Below, piece by piece: positions 24,948-44,059 of a stretch of 64,000 nt of DNA. The DNA is from Armatimonadota bacterium (GTDB lineage Bacteria > Armatimonadota > UBA5829 > DTLH01). The position numbers and the translations under genes were made by a program. The stretch spans positions 1-64,000 of the forward strand of contig JBBRAE010000008.1 in the NCBI GenBank assembly GCA_038207085.1, given 5' to 3'. The notes beneath the pieces are model-generated. The model searched no databases, had not been told where the DNA came from, and saw only the letters and a list, made by a program, of their open reading frames with translations. Numbering within the stretch: position 1 is the stretch's first letter; every line of letters starts with the position of its first letter.

Positions 24948-25004
24948 TTGCATTCACTCGATCCCGATGATATACTTCAGTTACGGTTGTGAAATCGTGC
25001 ACGA
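24948..25004 (+). promoter_or_regulatory. rex promoter with Rex operator-like site
   Basis: TTGCAT-N17-TATACT (24948-24976), then TTGTGAAATCGTGCACGA (24987-25004), 2 mismatches to TTGTGAA-N4-TTCACAA. Confidence 0.75.
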
Positions 25005-25035
25005 TTCATTTTGAACTGTCCTCCAGGTGTGACTG

Positions 25036-25680
25036 ATGCGAAAAAACAACGGCCACAAAGTCCCAATGCCAACGCTTGAGCGACTTGCCACATATCTCAC
25101 CTCGCTAACCGAGCTTGCCGATCAGCAGGTGCAGACGGTATCCTCAAGCGACATCGAGCAGGTTACCGGGATCAACGCGGCTCAGTTCCGCAAGGACCTG
25201 TCCTACTTCGGCGAGTTCGGGCGACCGGGCATCGGCTACAATGTGCTGGAGCTAAGGAGTTGGATCGCCCAAATCCTCAAAGTCGAACGCGAGCAGCCCG
25301 TCATCCTCGTCGGCGCGGGAAACCTCGGGAGCGCGCTTGTGGGTTACGCGGGGCTTGGTATTCAGAACTTTCGGATCTGTGGCGTCTTTGACAACAACTA
25401 CAACAAGATCGGACGCAGGCTCTGGGACCAGGAGATTATGGACGTCGCGACGATTGTCGAGGCGAACAGCGAGATTCAGGCGCGCATCGGGGTGATCGCG
25501 GTTCCGGCGAGCGTGGGTCAGGATGTCGCCAACAGAATGATCGAGGCCGGAGTCAAGTCGATTCTCAACTTTGCGCCGACCAGGCTTAAGGTTCCAGAGG
25601 GCGTGGTCGTGCGAAATGTCGACTTTGTGCAGGAACTAGCCGTTCTCGCGTTTCATCTGTCGGAAGATGAATCCGAATGA
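25036..25680 (+). CDS. rex: Redox-sensing transcriptional repressor Rex
   Basis: TLERLATY, QFRKDLSYFGEFGRPGIGY, LVGAGNLG Rossmann motif, ILNFAP. Confidence 0.97.
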   Translation: MRKNNGHKVPMPTLERLATYLTSLTELADQQVQTVSSSDIEQVTGINAAQFRKDLSYFGEFGRPGIGYNVLELRSWIAQILKVEREQPVILVGAGNLGSALVGYAGLGIQNFRICGVFDNNYNKIGRRLWDQEIMDVATIVEANSEIQARIGVIAVPASVGQDVANRMIEAGVKSILNFAPTRLKVPEGVVVRNVDFVQELAVLAFHLSEDESE

Positions 25681-26099
25681 GGAAATACATGAAGAACTTC
25701 ACCATCGCCGCCGCGATCGTGCTTGTGGCCTCCGGGATAATCGTCGCCGCCCCCTCCAAAGACGCGAAGTACATCGGCGCGGACAAGTGCAAATCATGCC
25801 ACTCGACCGAGCACAAGGGCTGGAGCAAGACCGCGCATGCCCGGGCGTTTGATCAGCTCGCGAACGTCGGGCAGGAGAAAAACGGTGACTGCCTGCCCTG
25901 CCACACAACCGGTTACGGCATCGGCGGGTTCACCAATGAAGCTGCGACCCCGAACTTCAAAGCGGTGCAGTGCGAGAGTTGCCACGGGCCGGGAAGCGAG
26001 CACAACGGCGACGCCACAAAGATCGTGCGGGCGCCTTCCTCAATCATCTGCGCGGGCTGCCACCAAAGCCACGGACTTCACCCCAAAAGCAGCATGTAA
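25677..26099 (+). CDS. Exported tetraheme c-type cytochrome (c554/C-prime-like)
   Basis: Signal peptide; YIGADKCKSCH..W..T.HARA; 4 CxxCH (CKSCH, CLPCH, CESCH, CAGCH); ATGA overlap with the rex stop. Confidence 0.9.
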   Translation: MRKYMKNFTIAAAIVLVASGIIVAAPSKDAKYIGADKCKSCHSTEHKGWSKTAHARAFDQLANVGQEKNGDCLPCHTTGYGIGGFTNEAATPNFKAVQCESCHGPGSEHNGDATKIVRAPSSIICAGCHQSHGLHPKSSM

Positions 26100-26148
26100 G
26101 CAATCTTCACAGTGGTTTAAATAATCTTCAGTCACGCTTTAGTTTCCG

Positions 26149-26204
26149 TTGACAATCCTTGCAGGCTGGGGTATTATGAAACTGAACTGTGAACATCGGC
26201 ACAA
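26149..26204 (+). promoter_or_regulatory. Promoter of the 14-heme cytochrome with second Rex operator-like site
   Basis: TTGACA-N17-TATTAT (26149-26177), then CTGTGAACATCGGCACAA (26187-26204). Confidence 0.65.
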
Positions 26205-26263
26205 AGCCTGCAAGTAGCAAGCTGCGACATTCAACGCTCGTGCATGCCCGTGAAAGGGATCAG

Positions 26264-27397
26264 ATGGCTTCTGTATCGCGGTGGTCCTCAGCCATTCTGG
26301 CGACTCTTTTCTTAAGCCTCGCTGCTGTTGCGACGGCCGATACCGCGCCCGCGTCCCCCTCCGCTACCCTCAGCGCCGAGGAGTCATGCGGCAAGTGCCA
26401 CTTCGACAATTCCCCGAACGCCGTCTCCGGCAAGACCATCGAGAGCAAATACTGGAAAAGGTCCGACCACAAACGAAACGATGTCGAGTGCCTTTCCTGC
26501 CACTACGAACACGGCGGCTCGGCAGGGATGTTCAGGAAGAAGTCGCCGGATCTCTGCATCGGCTGCCACAAGGAGATCGCGAAAAAGGGCGATTACCTAC
26601 ATGCGCCGATCGCCGGAGGAGCGTGTCTTACCTGTCACAACCCTCACGGAACGAGCGCGCGCCATCAGCTTGTGAAGAACGTATCCACGTCGTGCGTCGC
26701 CTGCCACAGCCCCAAAGTCGCCAAGTTTACCCTCGCCCACAAGGGCATCGATGTTTCCACTTCGAACTGCGTCGAGTGCCATTCGGCCCATTCCCGCAAC
26801 AGGACAGCAAAGCGCATCAAACCCAGACAGCACATGCCGTTTAAGAGCGGTCAATGTGGCACGTGCCACAAACCTGGGAGCAGTGAGCTCGCCAAACCCG
26901 AGAAAGATCTCTGCGCGATCTGCCACAAAGACGTTGTCGGGTCCCCTGAGAAGGCGGGACATGCTCACGCCGCGGTTACAGAAGGGATGTGCACCCAGTG
27001 CCATTCCCCGCACGCGTCTGACGCTCCAAAGGGGCTTTACAAAGACAAACAGATTGCCAACTCCTGTTTCCTCTGCCACACAGGCGTAGAGGATGAGGTG
27101 AACTCGAAGTATAAGCACGAACCCGCGCGCGATCTCAACTGTCTCACCTGTCACAAGGGGCACTCGTCGACCCAGAAGACTTTGCTCGTCAAGGATTCGA
27201 TAGAGCTTTGCAAAGGCTGCCACAAGCCGCACGCTCATCCCTTTGGCAAGCTTGCAAACGGCAAGGTAGTCATCGACCCAACCACAAACGATATGCTCAC
27301 CTGCGCGAGTTGTCATACTCCGCACGGTTCAAACCATAACAAACTTACACATCTGGACAAGAACGCGGAACTCTGCACAATGTGCCACAAGGTGTAG
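26264..27397 (+). CDS. Exported multiheme c-type cytochrome, 14 CxxCH (paired CxxCH type)
   Basis: Signal peptide from ATG 26264; 14 CxxCH counted, mostly as CxxCHxxH..CxxCH pairs. Confidence 0.93.
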   Translation: MASVSRWSSAILATLFLSLAAVATADTAPASPSATLSAEESCGKCHFDNSPNAVSGKTIESKYWKRSDHKRNDVECLSCHYEHGGSAGMFRKKSPDLCIGCHKEIAKKGDYLHAPIAGGACLTCHNPHGTSARHQLVKNVSTSCVACHSPKVAKFTLAHKGIDVSTSNCVECHSAHSRNRTAKRIKPRQHMPFKSGQCGTCHKPGSSELAKPEKDLCAICHKDVVGSPEKAGHAHAAVTEGMCTQCHSPHASDAPKGLYKDKQIANSCFLCHTGVEDEVNSKYKHEPARDLNCLTCHKGHSSTQKTLLVKDSIELCKGCHKPHAHPFGKLANGKVVIDPTTNDMLTCASCHTPHGSNHNKLTHLDKNAELCTMCHKV

Positions 27398-27462
27398 ATA
27401 ACTAACCCGTTGTTTCGGGGACCCCGTCCCCGAAACCGACTGCTGGCATACGGCAAACTGAT

Positions 27463-28476
27463 ATGATCACAGCGAACTTCACAACTTGGCGCGTGGGCAT
27501 TGTGACAAAGTTCACTCTGCTCTTTATGATTGGAGCTATGTCGCACGCAGGCGGCACTGCGCTTCCTGAGATCAAAGATAACACCAATCTTTGCATTTAC
27601 GGATGGTCGCGCAGTGAGCCGTTCAAGAACCCCGGCGGCGTGTATTTCTATGCCAGACGCTCCGAGGTGTATGTCGCTGACTCCGGGAACCACCAGGTGC
27701 TTGTGTTCAACACCGCTGGGACGCCCGTTGCGAGGATCAGGCACAGCGTCGACTCCGAGACGCCGGGAGAGGTCCGTCAGGGTGAGCCCGTGCGGGTTGC
27801 GGTCAACTCCAGAGGCGACATCCTTTTGGTCGACGCGCTTGCGGGGTATCTCGACGTGCTCGACTACCGGGGCAAATCGATCAAACGGATATACCCCGGA
27901 GACCTGCTGGGGATGGCCCGGGATTTGGTATCGTGCTCGGCGGTTGCGGTGGATCTGGCAGACAATGTCTATCTTGCGACTGCGGGCGGCGAGGTCGCGG
28001 TGCTCATGATCGACCCGTCAGGCAAGCTTGTGCGCAAGATCGGCAAGAAGGGCCAGGGCGAAGGGGCGTTTACATCGATCACCTCGGTCTGGATCGATGG
28101 CGGTGGCAAGGTCTACACTACCGACTCCAGAGGCGAGCCGAGTGTGCAGGTGTTCTCGCCCGAAGGCAAAGTCCTGCTCGGGTTTGGGGCTCACTCGTCG
28201 GGGCCGAACAATTTCTCTCTACCCGAAGGCGTCGTAACCGACGAACTCGGCAACATCTACGTGATCGATGGGCTGCGCCACTGGATCGGCGCGTTCAGCC
28301 CGACCGGTCAGTTCATAACGAGGCTTGGCGGCGGGTTCGGTGATCGTCCCGGCGACCTTGCCTATCCGACCTCGCTCGCCGGAGACGGCAAACGGACCCT
28401 CTTTACGACCGAAAAGGTCGGGGCGAGGCTGCAGGGGTTCAATCTCAAAATCACACCACCGAAATCAGGTGATTGA
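27463..28476 (+). CDS. NHL-repeat beta-propeller protein
   Basis: FKNPGGV..VYVADSGNHQVLVF, FSLPEGVVTDELGNIYVID and LAYPTSL blades; hydrophobic N-terminus; start uncertain. Confidence 0.9.
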   Translation: MITANFTTWRVGIVTKFTLLFMIGAMSHAGGTALPEIKDNTNLCIYGWSRSEPFKNPGGVYFYARRSEVYVADSGNHQVLVFNTAGTPVARIRHSVDSETPGEVRQGEPVRVAVNSRGDILLVDALAGYLDVLDYRGKSIKRIYPGDLLGMARDLVSCSAVAVDLADNVYLATAGGEVAVLMIDPSGKLVRKIGKKGQGEGAFTSITSVWIDGGGKVYTTDSRGEPSVQVFSPEGKVLLGFGAHSSGPNNFSLPEGVVTDELGNIYVIDGLRHWIGAFSPTGQFITRLGGGFGDRPGDLAYPTSLAGDGKRTLFTTEKVGARLQGFNLKITPPKSGD

Positions 28477-28602
28477 TGATACAGGTCGGGCTTTGCCCGG
28501 CTTGGATAGTAAAACAGTATCAGTATAAGGAAAGAAGGTGAATCCTTAACTAACATTTACACTACAAAGTGTAGGGATTCAATAGTTAAGGAAGAAAAGA
28601 CC

Positions 28603-29685
28603 ATGAACAAAACGCTTCCAGTAATTGCCGTAGCGCTGATTGTAGTATTCGCAGCCGCTGTGTCATACGCCGGTGACTATCACTCAGGCGCCAACAACGT
28701 GTGTTCCGACTGCCACACCATGCACTACAGCCGCAGCCATGACACCGCGGGAGGCACGGGGACAGGTTTTACCGACCTCGGCCCCGGTGGTCTGTTCACA
28801 GGCTTGCTCCGGGATGAGCCGAACAAGCTCTGCCTGGCGTGCCATGACGGCAAGACCGACGCTCCCGACGTTCTCGGCAACAACACGAACAGCTACTCCC
28901 GCTCAGGGGGCGCGCTGAACGACACCGCCGGGACCGACGGCTATGCATCGTGGACCGGCCACACGCTCGGTTCCACATCCGCGGCTCCGGGCGGCACGTT
29001 TGCCGACGCCGAGGGGCTTGAGTGCATCGACTGCCACCATCAGCATGGTTCGGCTTCAAGTGGAAAAGACGCGACCGGAGCTACCGTCTCAAGCGCCTAC
29101 CGCAACCTGAAGTCGTGGAACGACGGCTCCGGCAACCGTGCGGTGAGCTACTCGGCCGGCGACACCAAAGACCTCACTAAGGACGTTTGGGAGGCCTACG
29201 GACACGGTTCGACGCTTGCTCAGCACTATGGGCAGGACAACGTCGGACTGCTCGAACCCGTTCAGACCAAGTCCGGTATGGCTGACTACTGCAAGAGCTG
29301 CCACACCAGCTTCCACGGCGCCAAGGGCGATGTGAACACCGTCGGCGGCGACGTGGCGACCGGGCACGATTGGCTTCGCCACCCGAATGCTGACAGCAAC
29401 ATCGGCGGTCAAACGACCAAGGGCCATTCCAACCTGGCCCGCTACAACACCAAGCTCTATCGCGTCCGCGTTATGAGCGGCTCGGGCAACTGGGGCACCC
29501 AGGGAGCAGCCTGGACCGGCGCTCCGACCGACCTTACCCCAACGTGTCTCTCCTGTCACAAGGCCCACGGCAACAAGAACGCCTTCGGCCTGGTCCTGGC
29601 AGACGGCACCGCAGCAATCGGCGAAGATGGAAACACAACTTCCACCAAGTCGACCTGCACCCAGTGCCACGTTCAGGGCGGGTAG
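28603..29685 (+). CDS. Exported hexaheme c-type cytochrome, OmcS-like
   Basis: Signal peptide; YHSG...CSDCHTMH; 6 CxxCH with the last at the C-terminus; GHTL, AYRNL, LRHP and CLSCHKAH motifs. Confidence 0.85.
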   Translation: MNKTLPVIAVALIVVFAAAVSYAGDYHSGANNVCSDCHTMHYSRSHDTAGGTGTGFTDLGPGGLFTGLLRDEPNKLCLACHDGKTDAPDVLGNNTNSYSRSGGALNDTAGTDGYASWTGHTLGSTSAAPGGTFADAEGLECIDCHHQHGSASSGKDATGATVSSAYRNLKSWNDGSGNRAVSYSAGDTKDLTKDVWEAYGHGSTLAQHYGQDNVGLLEPVQTKSGMADYCKSCHTSFHGAKGDVNTVGGDVATGHDWLRHPNADSNIGGQTTKGHSNLARYNTKLYRVRVMSGSGNWGTQGAAWTGAPTDLTPTCLSCHKAHGNKNAFGLVLADGTAAIGEDGNTTSTKSTCTQCHVQGG

Positions 29686-29711
29686 GGCGCAAGCTGTTAG
29701 CTGTTAAGTAT

Positions 29712-29743
29712 GGGCGGCGAAAGAGATTTCGCCGCCCTGTTTT
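29712..29743 (+). terminator. Rho-independent terminator
   Basis: GGGCGGCGAAA-GAGA-TTTCGCCGCCC then TGTTTT. Confidence 0.8.
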
Positions 29744-29795: not shown

Positions 29796-29831
29796 TTGAC
29801 GTCGAAATATGGTATGACTATAATAGTCATA
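29796..29831 (+). promoter_or_regulatory. vapBC promoter with palindromic operator
   Basis: TTGACG-N17-TATAAT; perfect palindrome TATGACTAT-A-ATAGTCATA (29813-29831) covers the -10. Confidence 0.8.
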
Positions 29832-29855: not shown

Positions 29856-30149
29856 ATGCGAACTGCAGCGATAGCGAAGCTAAAGGCGGGATTGTCCGGG
29901 TACCTTGAGAGCGTGAAAGGCGGAGAGCAGGTTGTGGTTACAGACCGTGGCCGTCCGGTGGCGCTCATTGTGCCTATTGATCCGAATATATCTATGGATG
30001 AGAGACGAGCGGAACTTGTCGCCAAGGGGCTGGTAAGGCCCGGTTGTGGATCAATCCCGGTGGATTTGATAGAAGGGGCCGTCGTTTCCGGTCTGACATC
30101 TGAGCGTGCGCTTCAGGCTGTTATTGAAGACCGCGAGGACAGAGTATGA
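29856..30149 (+). CDS. vapB: Phd/YefM-family antitoxin
   Basis: MRTAAIAKLKAGLSGYLESVKGGEQVVVTDRGRPVALIVP; overlaps the PIN gene by ATGA. Confidence 0.9.
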   Translation: MRTAAIAKLKAGLSGYLESVKGGEQVVVTDRGRPVALIVPIDPNISMDERRAELVAKGLVRPGCGSIPVDLIEGAVVSGLTSERALQAVIEDREDRV

Positions 30150-30568
30150 AGTTCTGGGATACCTCCGCGCTTTTCGTGCTCCTGACCGTCCAGCCCGACA
30201 GCTCCAGTGCCGCCGCCGTGTTTGGCTCTGATCCTGAGGTGGCGATGTGGTGGGTGACATCCGTCGAGTTGGCCTCGGCAGCGTCCCGGTTGCGTAGAAT
30301 GGGTGAGGTTGACGAGGCGGGCTATGTGCGCATACTCAGCAAGATAGCGCCTTTTGCTCGGAGCGCTGAGGAGGTCCAGCCTACTGAGGAGGTCAGGCAG
30401 ACCGCGCTCAGGCTGATCCGGGTCCACGACCTGCGTACCGCTGACTCGCTCCAACTCGCGGCAGCTCTTGTCTGGGCAAGGCACGTCCCAACAGGTCTTG
30501 GGTTTGTATGCATGGATGCGAAGCTTCGTGCAGCTGCCGAAAAAGAGGGTTTTATCGTCTTGGGATAA
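30146..30568 (+). CDS. vapC: PIN-domain toxin
   Basis: FWDTSAL, VELASA, LRTADSLQLAAA, D.KL..AA..EGF. Confidence 0.92.
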   Translation: MKFWDTSALFVLLTVQPDSSSAAAVFGSDPEVAMWWVTSVELASAASRLRRMGEVDEAGYVRILSKIAPFARSAEEVQPTEEVRQTALRLIRVHDLRTADSLQLAAALVWARHVPTGLGFVCMDAKLRAAAEKEGFIVLG

Positions 30569-30667: not shown

Positions 30668-30748
30668 TTAGCCCGCTTTATTCGTGAAGCGAATAAAGCT
30701 TTCACTAACAGAGCATTATTCACGCCACTCGTGAATAATGCCGGTTAG
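30668..30748 (+). repeat. 81-nt double-hairpin palindromic repeat (TTAG/CTAG-ended family)
   Basis: GCTTTATTCG..CGAATAAAGC plus GCATTATTCACG..CGTGAATAATGC; near reverse complement of 43979-44059. Confidence 0.88.
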
Positions 30749-43973: not shown

Positions 43974-43978
43974 TATGG

Positions 43979-44059
43979 CTAACTGGCATTATTCACGAGA
44001 AGCGTGAATAATGTTCTCTTAGCAAGAGCTTTATTCGCTTCACGAATAAAGCGGGCTAA
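43979..44059 (-). repeat. 81-nt double-hairpin palindromic repeat (inverted copy of 30668-30748)
   Basis: Same two hairpins in reverse order; CTAA ends. Confidence 0.88.

Follow-up and report, generated by a model that had tools for sequence, protein, structure and literature searches.

Described systems and the Armatimonadota cluster

The closest described counterpart of the gene cluster analysed here is OmcS (GSU2504; structures 6EF8/6NEF) with the osc operon of Geobacter sulfurreducens (PMC13194489, PMC12977616), and homologues of this hexaheme cytochrome have been reported in diverse taxa (PMC10954620, PMC12954529, PMC7399161). The cluster in question, rex > tetraheme > 14-heme > NHL > hexaheme, is located at positions 24948..29743 of the first 64,000 nucleotides (the window) of contig JBBRAE010000008.1, assembly GCA_038207085.1. 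This host genome, called G000 in the following (C-numbers denote its contigs, G- and L-numbers other genomes and loci), comprises 3.35 Mb with a completeness of 100% and a contamination of 2%, and probably derives from a sediment bacterium of the phylum Armatimonadota. We moderately favour the view that the cluster represents half of a system for extracellular electron transfer (EET) of the osc/oet type, a class assignment made by gene make-up, under the control of the predicted NADH/NAD+-sensing repressor Rex.

Common to OmcS/osc and the window cluster are the fold of the hexaheme protein, six CxxCH motifs and conserved extra histidines, an NHL propeller and a large multiheme cytochrome encoded in the neighbourhood, and barrel and CsgG-like genes in the genome, which several relatives combine in one cluster. 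The association of an OmcS-like gene, an NHL propeller and a large multiheme cytochrome in one operon, a feature of osc and oet, is found in the window. On the other hand, the hexaheme is 19-24% identical to OmcS and about 70 residues shorter, a 26-heme gene is lacking in the window cluster, the barrel and CsgG-like genes are located on other contigs (C12 and C45, respectively) and the cluster possesses putative Rex-type operators, none of which were found reported for osc. The OetABI/OmcS-like cassette of syntrophic sulfate reducers likewise contains an OmcS-like gene, a periplasmic multiheme cytochrome, a porin and c554-type tetraheme carriers, but belongs to Desulfobacterota and is proposed to serve uptake from anaerobic methanotrophic archaea (ANME), Rex control not being mentioned in the accessible part of that report (PMC10553843). 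With MtrAB of Shewanella (6R2Q), the cluster shares a 14-heme protein resembling MtrA (E 3e-12), and the barrel encoded on C12 has MtrB as its best fold match, while the 14-heme gene is not located beside a porin gene and MtrC has no counterpart.

Rex has been connected with multiheme cytochromes before. In the Firmicute Calderihabitans maritimus, the same TTGTGA-N6-TCACAA sites precede multiheme, hydrogenase and oxidoreductase genes, among them three extracellular multiheme genes with Rex motifs upstream that are induced under reducing conditions (CO), although Rex binding is predicted there too and the accessible text does not describe the cytochromes as OmcS-type (PMC7306483). The Fe(III)-reducing actinobacterium Parvivirga hydrogeniphila equally carries rex in a multiheme/biogenesis cluster, but with MtrA/OmcH homologues and, as far as the report is accessible, without mention of OmcS or an operator analysis (PMC9686372). 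The sequence-only reading knew of no described Rex-controlled nanowire cluster; Rex-linked multiheme genes were already reported in these two works. No literature joining Rex to an OmcS cluster, nor Armatimonadota to OmcS, was found in a search outside which most subscription journals lay. OmcS/osc-type clusters and Rex control of multiheme cytochromes are each known; what is new is the link of both, which is seen in several phyla.

The hexaheme assignment is carried by a profile and a predicted structure. Among solved structures, a profile of 118 hexaheme sequences (of 590 homologues found, 120 were listed and aligned without the long P0015 and the partial P0030) matched OmcS (6EF8) with E 7.5e-16, followed by the next match at 0.1. 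The predicted model (pLDDT 88.7) matched 6EF8 in Foldseek with E 3e-7, probability 1.0, a TM-score of 0.45 and 19% identity, and in VIA-align with Z 14.0 over 259 aligned residues at an rmsd of 3.8 (next row 5.3); by all three comparisons, the OmcS-like nature proposed in the sequence-only reading is borne out. Two additional hexaheme paralogues are encoded in G000, on C12 and C14 (29% and 25% identity).

The bis-His hemes of OmcS need six distal histidines, one of which is donated by the neighbouring subunit (PMC6584659). Eight histidines outside the heme motifs are conserved in 116-118 of the 118 hexaheme homologues, and H27, H41, H148 and H322 align with histidines of OmcS in the profile alignment. 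H41 pairs with OmcS His16, which we take, unconfirmed, to be the inter-subunit heme ligand. The residue number of this ligand was not found in the literature searched, including the accessible parts of PMC9473688 and PMC9743091. A complex prediction for two hexaheme copies with four hemes scored 0.01 and is evidence neither way. By analogy with OmcS, polymerization of the hexaheme into filaments is conceivable, at somewhat less than even odds.

The five open reading frames all run in the same direction and encode 24 CxxCH motifs (four in the tetraheme, 14 in the 14-heme and six in the hexaheme protein), with each of the 8, 28 and 12 cysteines of these proteins part of a CxxCH. Profiles of the paired-CXXCH and NHL families match products of the cluster. 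Together with the folding of the terminator, these positions and counts confirm the gene arrangement as first read. The N-termini of the cytochromes, including the hexaheme, resemble Sec signals upon inspection by eye. The ATGA overlap of rex and the tetraheme gene noticed earlier is present in the sequence, but is perhaps unused because, judged by eye, an AGGA is better spaced ahead of a second ATG, at 25689. The tetraheme protein shows 55% identity to the tetraheme at the head of the G007 cluster and the NHL protein 61% to its counterpart in L047. The 14-heme protein, which matches TIGR03508 with E 6e-39 but under the cut-off, is 59% identical to residues 116-451 of the L047 16-heme protein and, judged by this alignment, is a shortened version of the 16-heme protein of relatives. 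As to still larger cytochromes, genes for 42-heme proteins (~1,050-1,150 amino acids) are located in OmcS-like clusters of several phyla (L063-L066, L068, L069, L072, L075, L076, L082 and others).

Of 401 genomes sampled from Armatimonadota, 13 were found to contain OmcS-like genes; L049 brings the genomes examined to 14, and 86 loci were mapped, comprising 80 GTDB loci (the best 80 of 257 confirmed) and six from G000 and relatives. The order 14/16-heme > NHL > hexaheme, expected to be conserved, indeed recurs in 10 of the 14 Armatimonadota genomes, with the tetraheme gene directly ahead in 6/14. An NHL gene is present in 70 of the 86 mapped loci, a CsgG-like gene in 58/86 and barrel genes in about half, the barrel/CsgG-like genes being adjacent or in the same cluster in L087, L102, G124, G367 and G424. 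The nearest named hexaheme relatives are labelled Armatimonadetes (P0004; L047), in agreement with the host phylum suggested from the window alone, and the L047 coordinates are those of G004, a genome of the host's own family.

Rex and the putative operators

The window Rex combines a winged helix with a Rossmann domain containing GxGxxG, exceeds the curated family cut-off and has intact GAGNLG and RKDLS motifs. In a phylogenetic tree with long branches flagged, it groups with orthologues of its own family and is, by this grouping, a vertically inherited orthologue. G000 encodes four Rex paralogues, and GAGNLG is intact exclusively in the window copy, the NAD-binding motifs being altered in 3/4.

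Rex control of the cluster is likely on the strength of the DNA motifs described below, through operators which the sequence-only reading had not seen, while the position of rex, on which that reading relied, is not conserved. A rex gene was found beside a multiheme gene in none of 29 orthologue loci (1.5-kb flanks, some shorter) and in none of the 80 best GTDB loci (flanks up to 10 kb, many shorter), so that a conserved 'Rex-led' synteny is not supported. In G124, a different Rex paralogue takes this place (Rex-like > tetraheme > 16-heme > NHL > hexaheme), and a barrel module adjoins this order back to back. The G124 protein is extended at its N-terminus by a Cys-rich stretch and devoid of GxGxxG; with long branches flagged, it falls in a clade other than that of the window Rex. 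Because of these different clades, we read the two arrangements as two separate recruitments of Rex-family genes to the module head. Members of the Cys-rich clade are encoded at L222:10505-11530 (G124), G000:C40:1212-2234 and L132, the C40 copy showing a DUF3795 match (E 3e-4); the clade may sense a signal other than NADH.

The operator matrix was derived by palindromic expectation maximization on 29 rex upstream regions from other genomes and yielded TTGTGnAnTAnTnCACAA, in agreement with the published Rex consensus as quoted in the accessible text of PMC5317091. Fourteen of the 29 regions, in varied gene contexts, exceed 12 bits. In G000, the site of rank 1 is located ahead of hdrCBA, rank 2 ahead of NuoE/ferredoxin-type genes, rank 3 ahead of a DRTGG/[FeFe]-hydrogenase cluster, rank 4 ahead of atp, rank 5 ahead of a response regulator gene, rank 6 ahead of a rex-hydrogenase operon, rank 7 ahead of the window rex and rank 10 ahead of hydG, with the best sites preceding three rex genes in all and ranks 8 and 9 showing no clear redox target. 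A two-component response regulator promoter at G000:C21:429-461 is laid out like P2: an 11/12 promoter is followed, 9 nt behind its -10 box, by a putative operator of 21.4 bits, and the regulator is possibly a second tier of the Rex regulon.

Within the window, a putative 18-bp TTGTGAANNNNTTCACAA-type operator is located at each of two promoters and is conserved in relatives. O1 is strong, with 20.9 bits, genome rank 7 in 3.35 Mb by a matrix trained without G000 and a shuffle p of 0.003. O2 is modest (12.6 bits, genome rank 47, shuffle p 0.013) and carries weight because of its conserved position relative to the promoter: TTGACA, 17-18 nt, TATTAT, 9 nt and the palindrome form the common layout of G000, G004 and G007, the -35 and -10 hexamers of P2 being identical in G004 and G007. 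Of the 609 strong promoter-like sites of G000, only two have an operator-like site of at least 10 bits at a distance of 4-12 nt behind the -10 box, a distance window chosen post hoc. As an 11/12 promoter precedes the 14-heme gene, the cluster probably has two promoters, the strong internal P2 besides P1. The GTG at 26189 falls within O2, so that ATG 26264 is the probable start of the 14-heme gene.

Clusters were counted as marked at a site of at least 12 bits. As CxxCH-coding DNA resembles the operator (a false 15-bit site arose in G367), counts were redone with heme-coding DNA masked, which left the 80-locus counts unchanged. Eight of the 14 Armatimonadota genomes have a marked cluster after masking, the sites of relatives being stronger (17-24 bits) than O2; the other six score 10.7, 8.9, 7.6, 1.9, 0.0 and -0.8 bits. 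No operator was found in three high-GC Armatimonadota genomes, and in G124 a half-site of 16.1 bits lies beyond the preset windows. Among the 80 GTDB loci (78 genomes), a site is present in 28/56 with rex and in 0/24 without a full-length rex match, a split to be read with the confounders given below, while permuted matrices marked a mean of 1.4 and a maximum of 14 of the same loci. In other phyla, an upstream site accompanies 21 of the 41 rex genes examined, and cluster sites track these rex-upstream sites (17/21 versus 4/20 genomes); as kin are not independent, Fisher tests across genomes are not read as probabilities. G041, which consists of a single chromosome, encodes rex, scores 21.9 and 24.4 bits at its sites and yielded no cNMP-binding domain. 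Strong Rex-type palindromes of 16-25 bits, often just ahead of the hexaheme gene, were also observed in OmcS-like clusters of Zixibacteria- and Ignavibacteria-labelled and other genomes (L050, L052-L054, L056, L057, L071, L073, L079, L097, L098, L101, L104, L116).

Proposed electron route and competing explanations

Heme maturation and porin genes, noted as missing from the window, were both located elsewhere in the genome. The genes ccmABCEF form a single operon on C45, with CcmC, CcmE and CcmF domains over the Pfam cut-offs; the NCBIfam matches of CcmA, CcmB, CcmC and CcmF are under the equivalog cut-offs, and the CcmA and CcmB matches adjoin CcmC, E and F. Neither ResB nor Rnf/Nqr subunit D was found in G000. 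Directly upstream of ccmA, a homologue of the CsgG-like cluster protein (E 2e-45) is encoded, and 344 nt farther upstream the contig terminates in a repeat. At this locus, G000:C45:8853-19177 (minus strand, L142), the CsgG/GNA1162-like lipoprotein gene heads ccmABCEF, cysG-N, hemA, a ccsA-like gene and hemC.

A second OmcS-like operon, TolB-like > NHL > hexaheme > 9-heme > barrel, is located at C12:299-7535 (minus strand, L143) with a putative Rex-type site at C12:7554 (13.2 bits). The model of its ~550-amino-acid terminal protein, an all-beta barrel (pLDDT 70.6, four sequences), matches MtrB best (E 2e-9, TM-score 0.54), TonB-type barrels ranking lower, and by this model the protein is an MtrB-like barrel. 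A direct join of C12 and C45 was rejected: there is no exact overlap, and the 149-nt end repeat shared by the two contigs, which recurs at three other contig ends, is oriented in a way that does not yield one.

G000 further encodes MqnA, alternative complex III (ACIII), a cbb3-like oxidase and complex I-type membrane subunits in two sets. On C7 (76453-79653 and 84517-93602, L146), an 11-heme > cytochrome b > 16-heme unit and ACIII with the cbb3-like oxidase are located, and the cytochrome b/multiheme unit and ACIII are candidate quinol-oxidizing entry points, as far as gene content tells. Rex-type sites were not found ahead of ACIII or the ccm operon, nor ahead of the multiheme genes on C7 (11-heme) and C14 (7-heme; 6.7 bits).

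We propose the following mechanism. When the ratio of NADH to NAD+ is low, Rex would sit just behind the -10 boxes of P1 and P2 and block transcription. Upon build-up of NADH, Rex would release the DNA and the cluster would be expressed alongside hydrogenases, Hdr and ATP synthase. Electrons would then most likely pass from NADH via complex I to menaquinol and to ACIII or the C7 cytochrome b/multiheme unit, from the quinol-oxidizing unit to the tetraheme and 14-heme relays, and through the conduit formed by the C12-encoded barrel to the OmcS-fold hexaheme, presumably at the cell surface, which would deliver them to minerals, humics or partner cells. The outward direction is fairly probable.

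A number of observations weigh against an OmcS-type system under Rex control. With respect to regulation, 14 of 846 G000 leader windows (1.7%) reach the 12.6 bits of the modest O2, and in a held-out set, the five genomes found last, 1/5 reached 12 bits. The rex split among the GTDB loci is confounded by GC content (below 0.60, 25/37 versus 0/3; at 0.60 and above, 3/19 versus 0/21), by kinship and by incomplete genomes, the rex-negative set being mostly Planctomycetota. We take the operator core TGTGA-N6-TCACA to be common to CRP boxes, and besides the four Rex paralogues, G000 encodes one CRP/FNR-family gene, on C6. In rex mutants of D. alaskensis, several well-conserved targets were left unchanged (PMC4045070). 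With respect to the wire, the identity to OmcS is low (19-24%), solved structures searched with the single hexaheme sequence gave no match, OmcS being reached by the profile only, and the window operon lacks a porin. Among the Geobacter hexaheme paralogues, solely OmcS is known to polymerize (PMC12977616), and the part played by filaments in EET is disputed (PMC11077965).

Four alternatives have to be weighed. The most serious, to which we assign a low but appreciable probability, retains Rex control but regards the hexaheme as a monomeric periplasmic or surface protein of the GSU2501/OmcT kind, an electron store or short relay with ACIII plus the cbb3-type oxidase, or soluble acceptors, as possible sinks. 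The length difference of ~70 residues, the TM-score of 0.45, the porin-free operon and the presence of ACIII and a cbb3-like oxidase in G000 are compatible with such a relay; what argues for the wire is that His41, which follows CxxCH-x-M, and the other candidate distal histidines are invariant or nearly so, that a CsgG-like gene accompanies 58 of the 86 loci and barrel genes about half, and that the modules are adjacent in L087, L102 and G124.

It is rather improbable that a CRP/FNR-family factor, or a divergent Rex paralogue responding to another signal, binds the palindromes, leaving the cluster blind to NADH. The shared operator core, the C6 gene, the altered NAD-binding motifs of three of the four Rex paralogues and the Cys-rich protein without GxGxxG at the head of the G124 module would fit such a factor. 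The matrix, however, was learned from rex upstream regions, 14 of 29 of which exceed 12 bits, a site behind the -10 box is a repressor position, G041 combines strong sites with no cNMP-binding domain found, and cluster and rex-upstream sites co-occur in other phyla, kin among these genomes not being independent.

It is distinctly unlikely that the module imports electrons, be it from partner cells, conductive minerals or Fe(II), in the way suggested for the oet clusters of syntrophic sulfate reducers. OmcS-like and Oet genes are proposed to take in electrons in ANME partners (PMC10553843), MtoA-type genes have been reported in other Armatimonadota (PMC9671151) and the oxidase of G000 offers a possible sink, but de-repression at high NADH suits electron disposal, the established Rex logic (PMC5317091), and the genes marked by the same operator include bifurcating-type [FeFe] hydrogenases. 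That rex is located beside the cluster by chance, with O1 serving mere autoregulation and O2 a chance match, as the lack of rex adjacency in the 29 orthologue loci, an equal-scoring site inside the NHL coding region and the frequency of 12.6-bit leader windows could suggest, has hardly any probability given the identical operator position in three genomes, the stronger sites of relatives, the placement of the tetraheme gene under P1 regardless of O2 and the independent recruitment of a second Rex-family gene in G124.

The reading of an osc/oet-type system under Rex control provides an OmcS-type system outside Geobacter with a proposed signal (NADH/NAD+), a regulator and precisely located putative operators, and makes the disputed purpose of OmcS-family cytochromes testable without culture of the host. 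It also suggests an enrichment condition, excess electron donor combined with an electrode or Fe(III), in which to seek filaments. If this reading is true, apparently fermentative sediment bacteria could join iron cycling or direct interspecies electron transfer. More speculatively, and with the odds against it, fermenters from a number of uncultured phyla, Armatimonadota and Zixibacteria among them, might use compact OmcS-type nanowires as a NADH overflow valve, where a Rex regulon shared with hydrogenases directs electrons to H2 or wire and Rex-family genes have been recruited to the module head at least twice.

Feature coordinates and neighbouring elements

Table 1. Features of the cluster, with positions counted in the window
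Feature	Position	Strand	Basis or remark
Promoter P1, probable (TTGCAT-17-TATACT, 8/12), for rex + tetraheme	24948..24976	+	Layout relative to O1; under the 9/12 threshold
Putative Rex-type operator O1 (TTGTGAAATCGTGCACGA)	24987..25004	.	10 nt behind P1 -10 box
Rex, NADH/NAD+-sensing repressor (predicted)	25036..25680	+	NCBIfam NF003993, 236.9 bits (cut-off 217); tree, motifs
Probably exported c554-like tetraheme, probable periplasmic carrier	25677..26099 (alternative, likelier start 25689)	+	4 CxxCH; PF13435
Promoter P2 (TTGACA-17-TATTAT, 11/12), for 14-heme + NHL + hexaheme	26149..26177	+	-35 and -10 hexamers as in G004 and G007
Putative Rex-type operator O2 (CTGTGAACATCGGCACAA)	26187..26204	.	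9 nt behind P2 -10 box
Probably exported 14-heme DmsE/MtrA-like cytochrome	26264..27397 (alternative start 26189)	+	14 CxxCH; TIGR03508; MtrA
Intergenic hairpin without U tail, possible mRNA stabilizer or processing site	27409..27440	+	Region z -5.35, 0/200 shuffles
Probably exported NHL beta-propeller, usual neighbour of OmcS-type genes	27463..28476	+	PF01436
Hairpin within the 126-nt gap ahead of the hexaheme gene (role putative)	28482..28504	+	Region z -4.53
Probably exported hexaheme with OmcS fold, ~337 residues mature versus 407 in OmcS	28603..29685	+	Profile, predicted structure
Intrinsic terminator	29712..29737	+	z -4.5; 0/200 shuffles fold equally well

The cluster has a GC content of 0.584 compared with 0.57 for the genome. 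A Rex-like site of 12.6 bits at window positions 27500-27530, which overlaps a 10/12 promoter-like match, is located inside the NHL signal-peptide codons and was set aside as a probable chance match. Directly after the terminator, at 29856-30568, a Phd/YefM antitoxin and PIN-domain toxin pair is encoded, with its own 11/12 promoter at 29796-29824. Intergenic repeats of ~80 nt, REP- or MITE-like, are located at 30668-30748 and 43978-44059 of the window and on many contigs, their copy number in the genome being well above 100.

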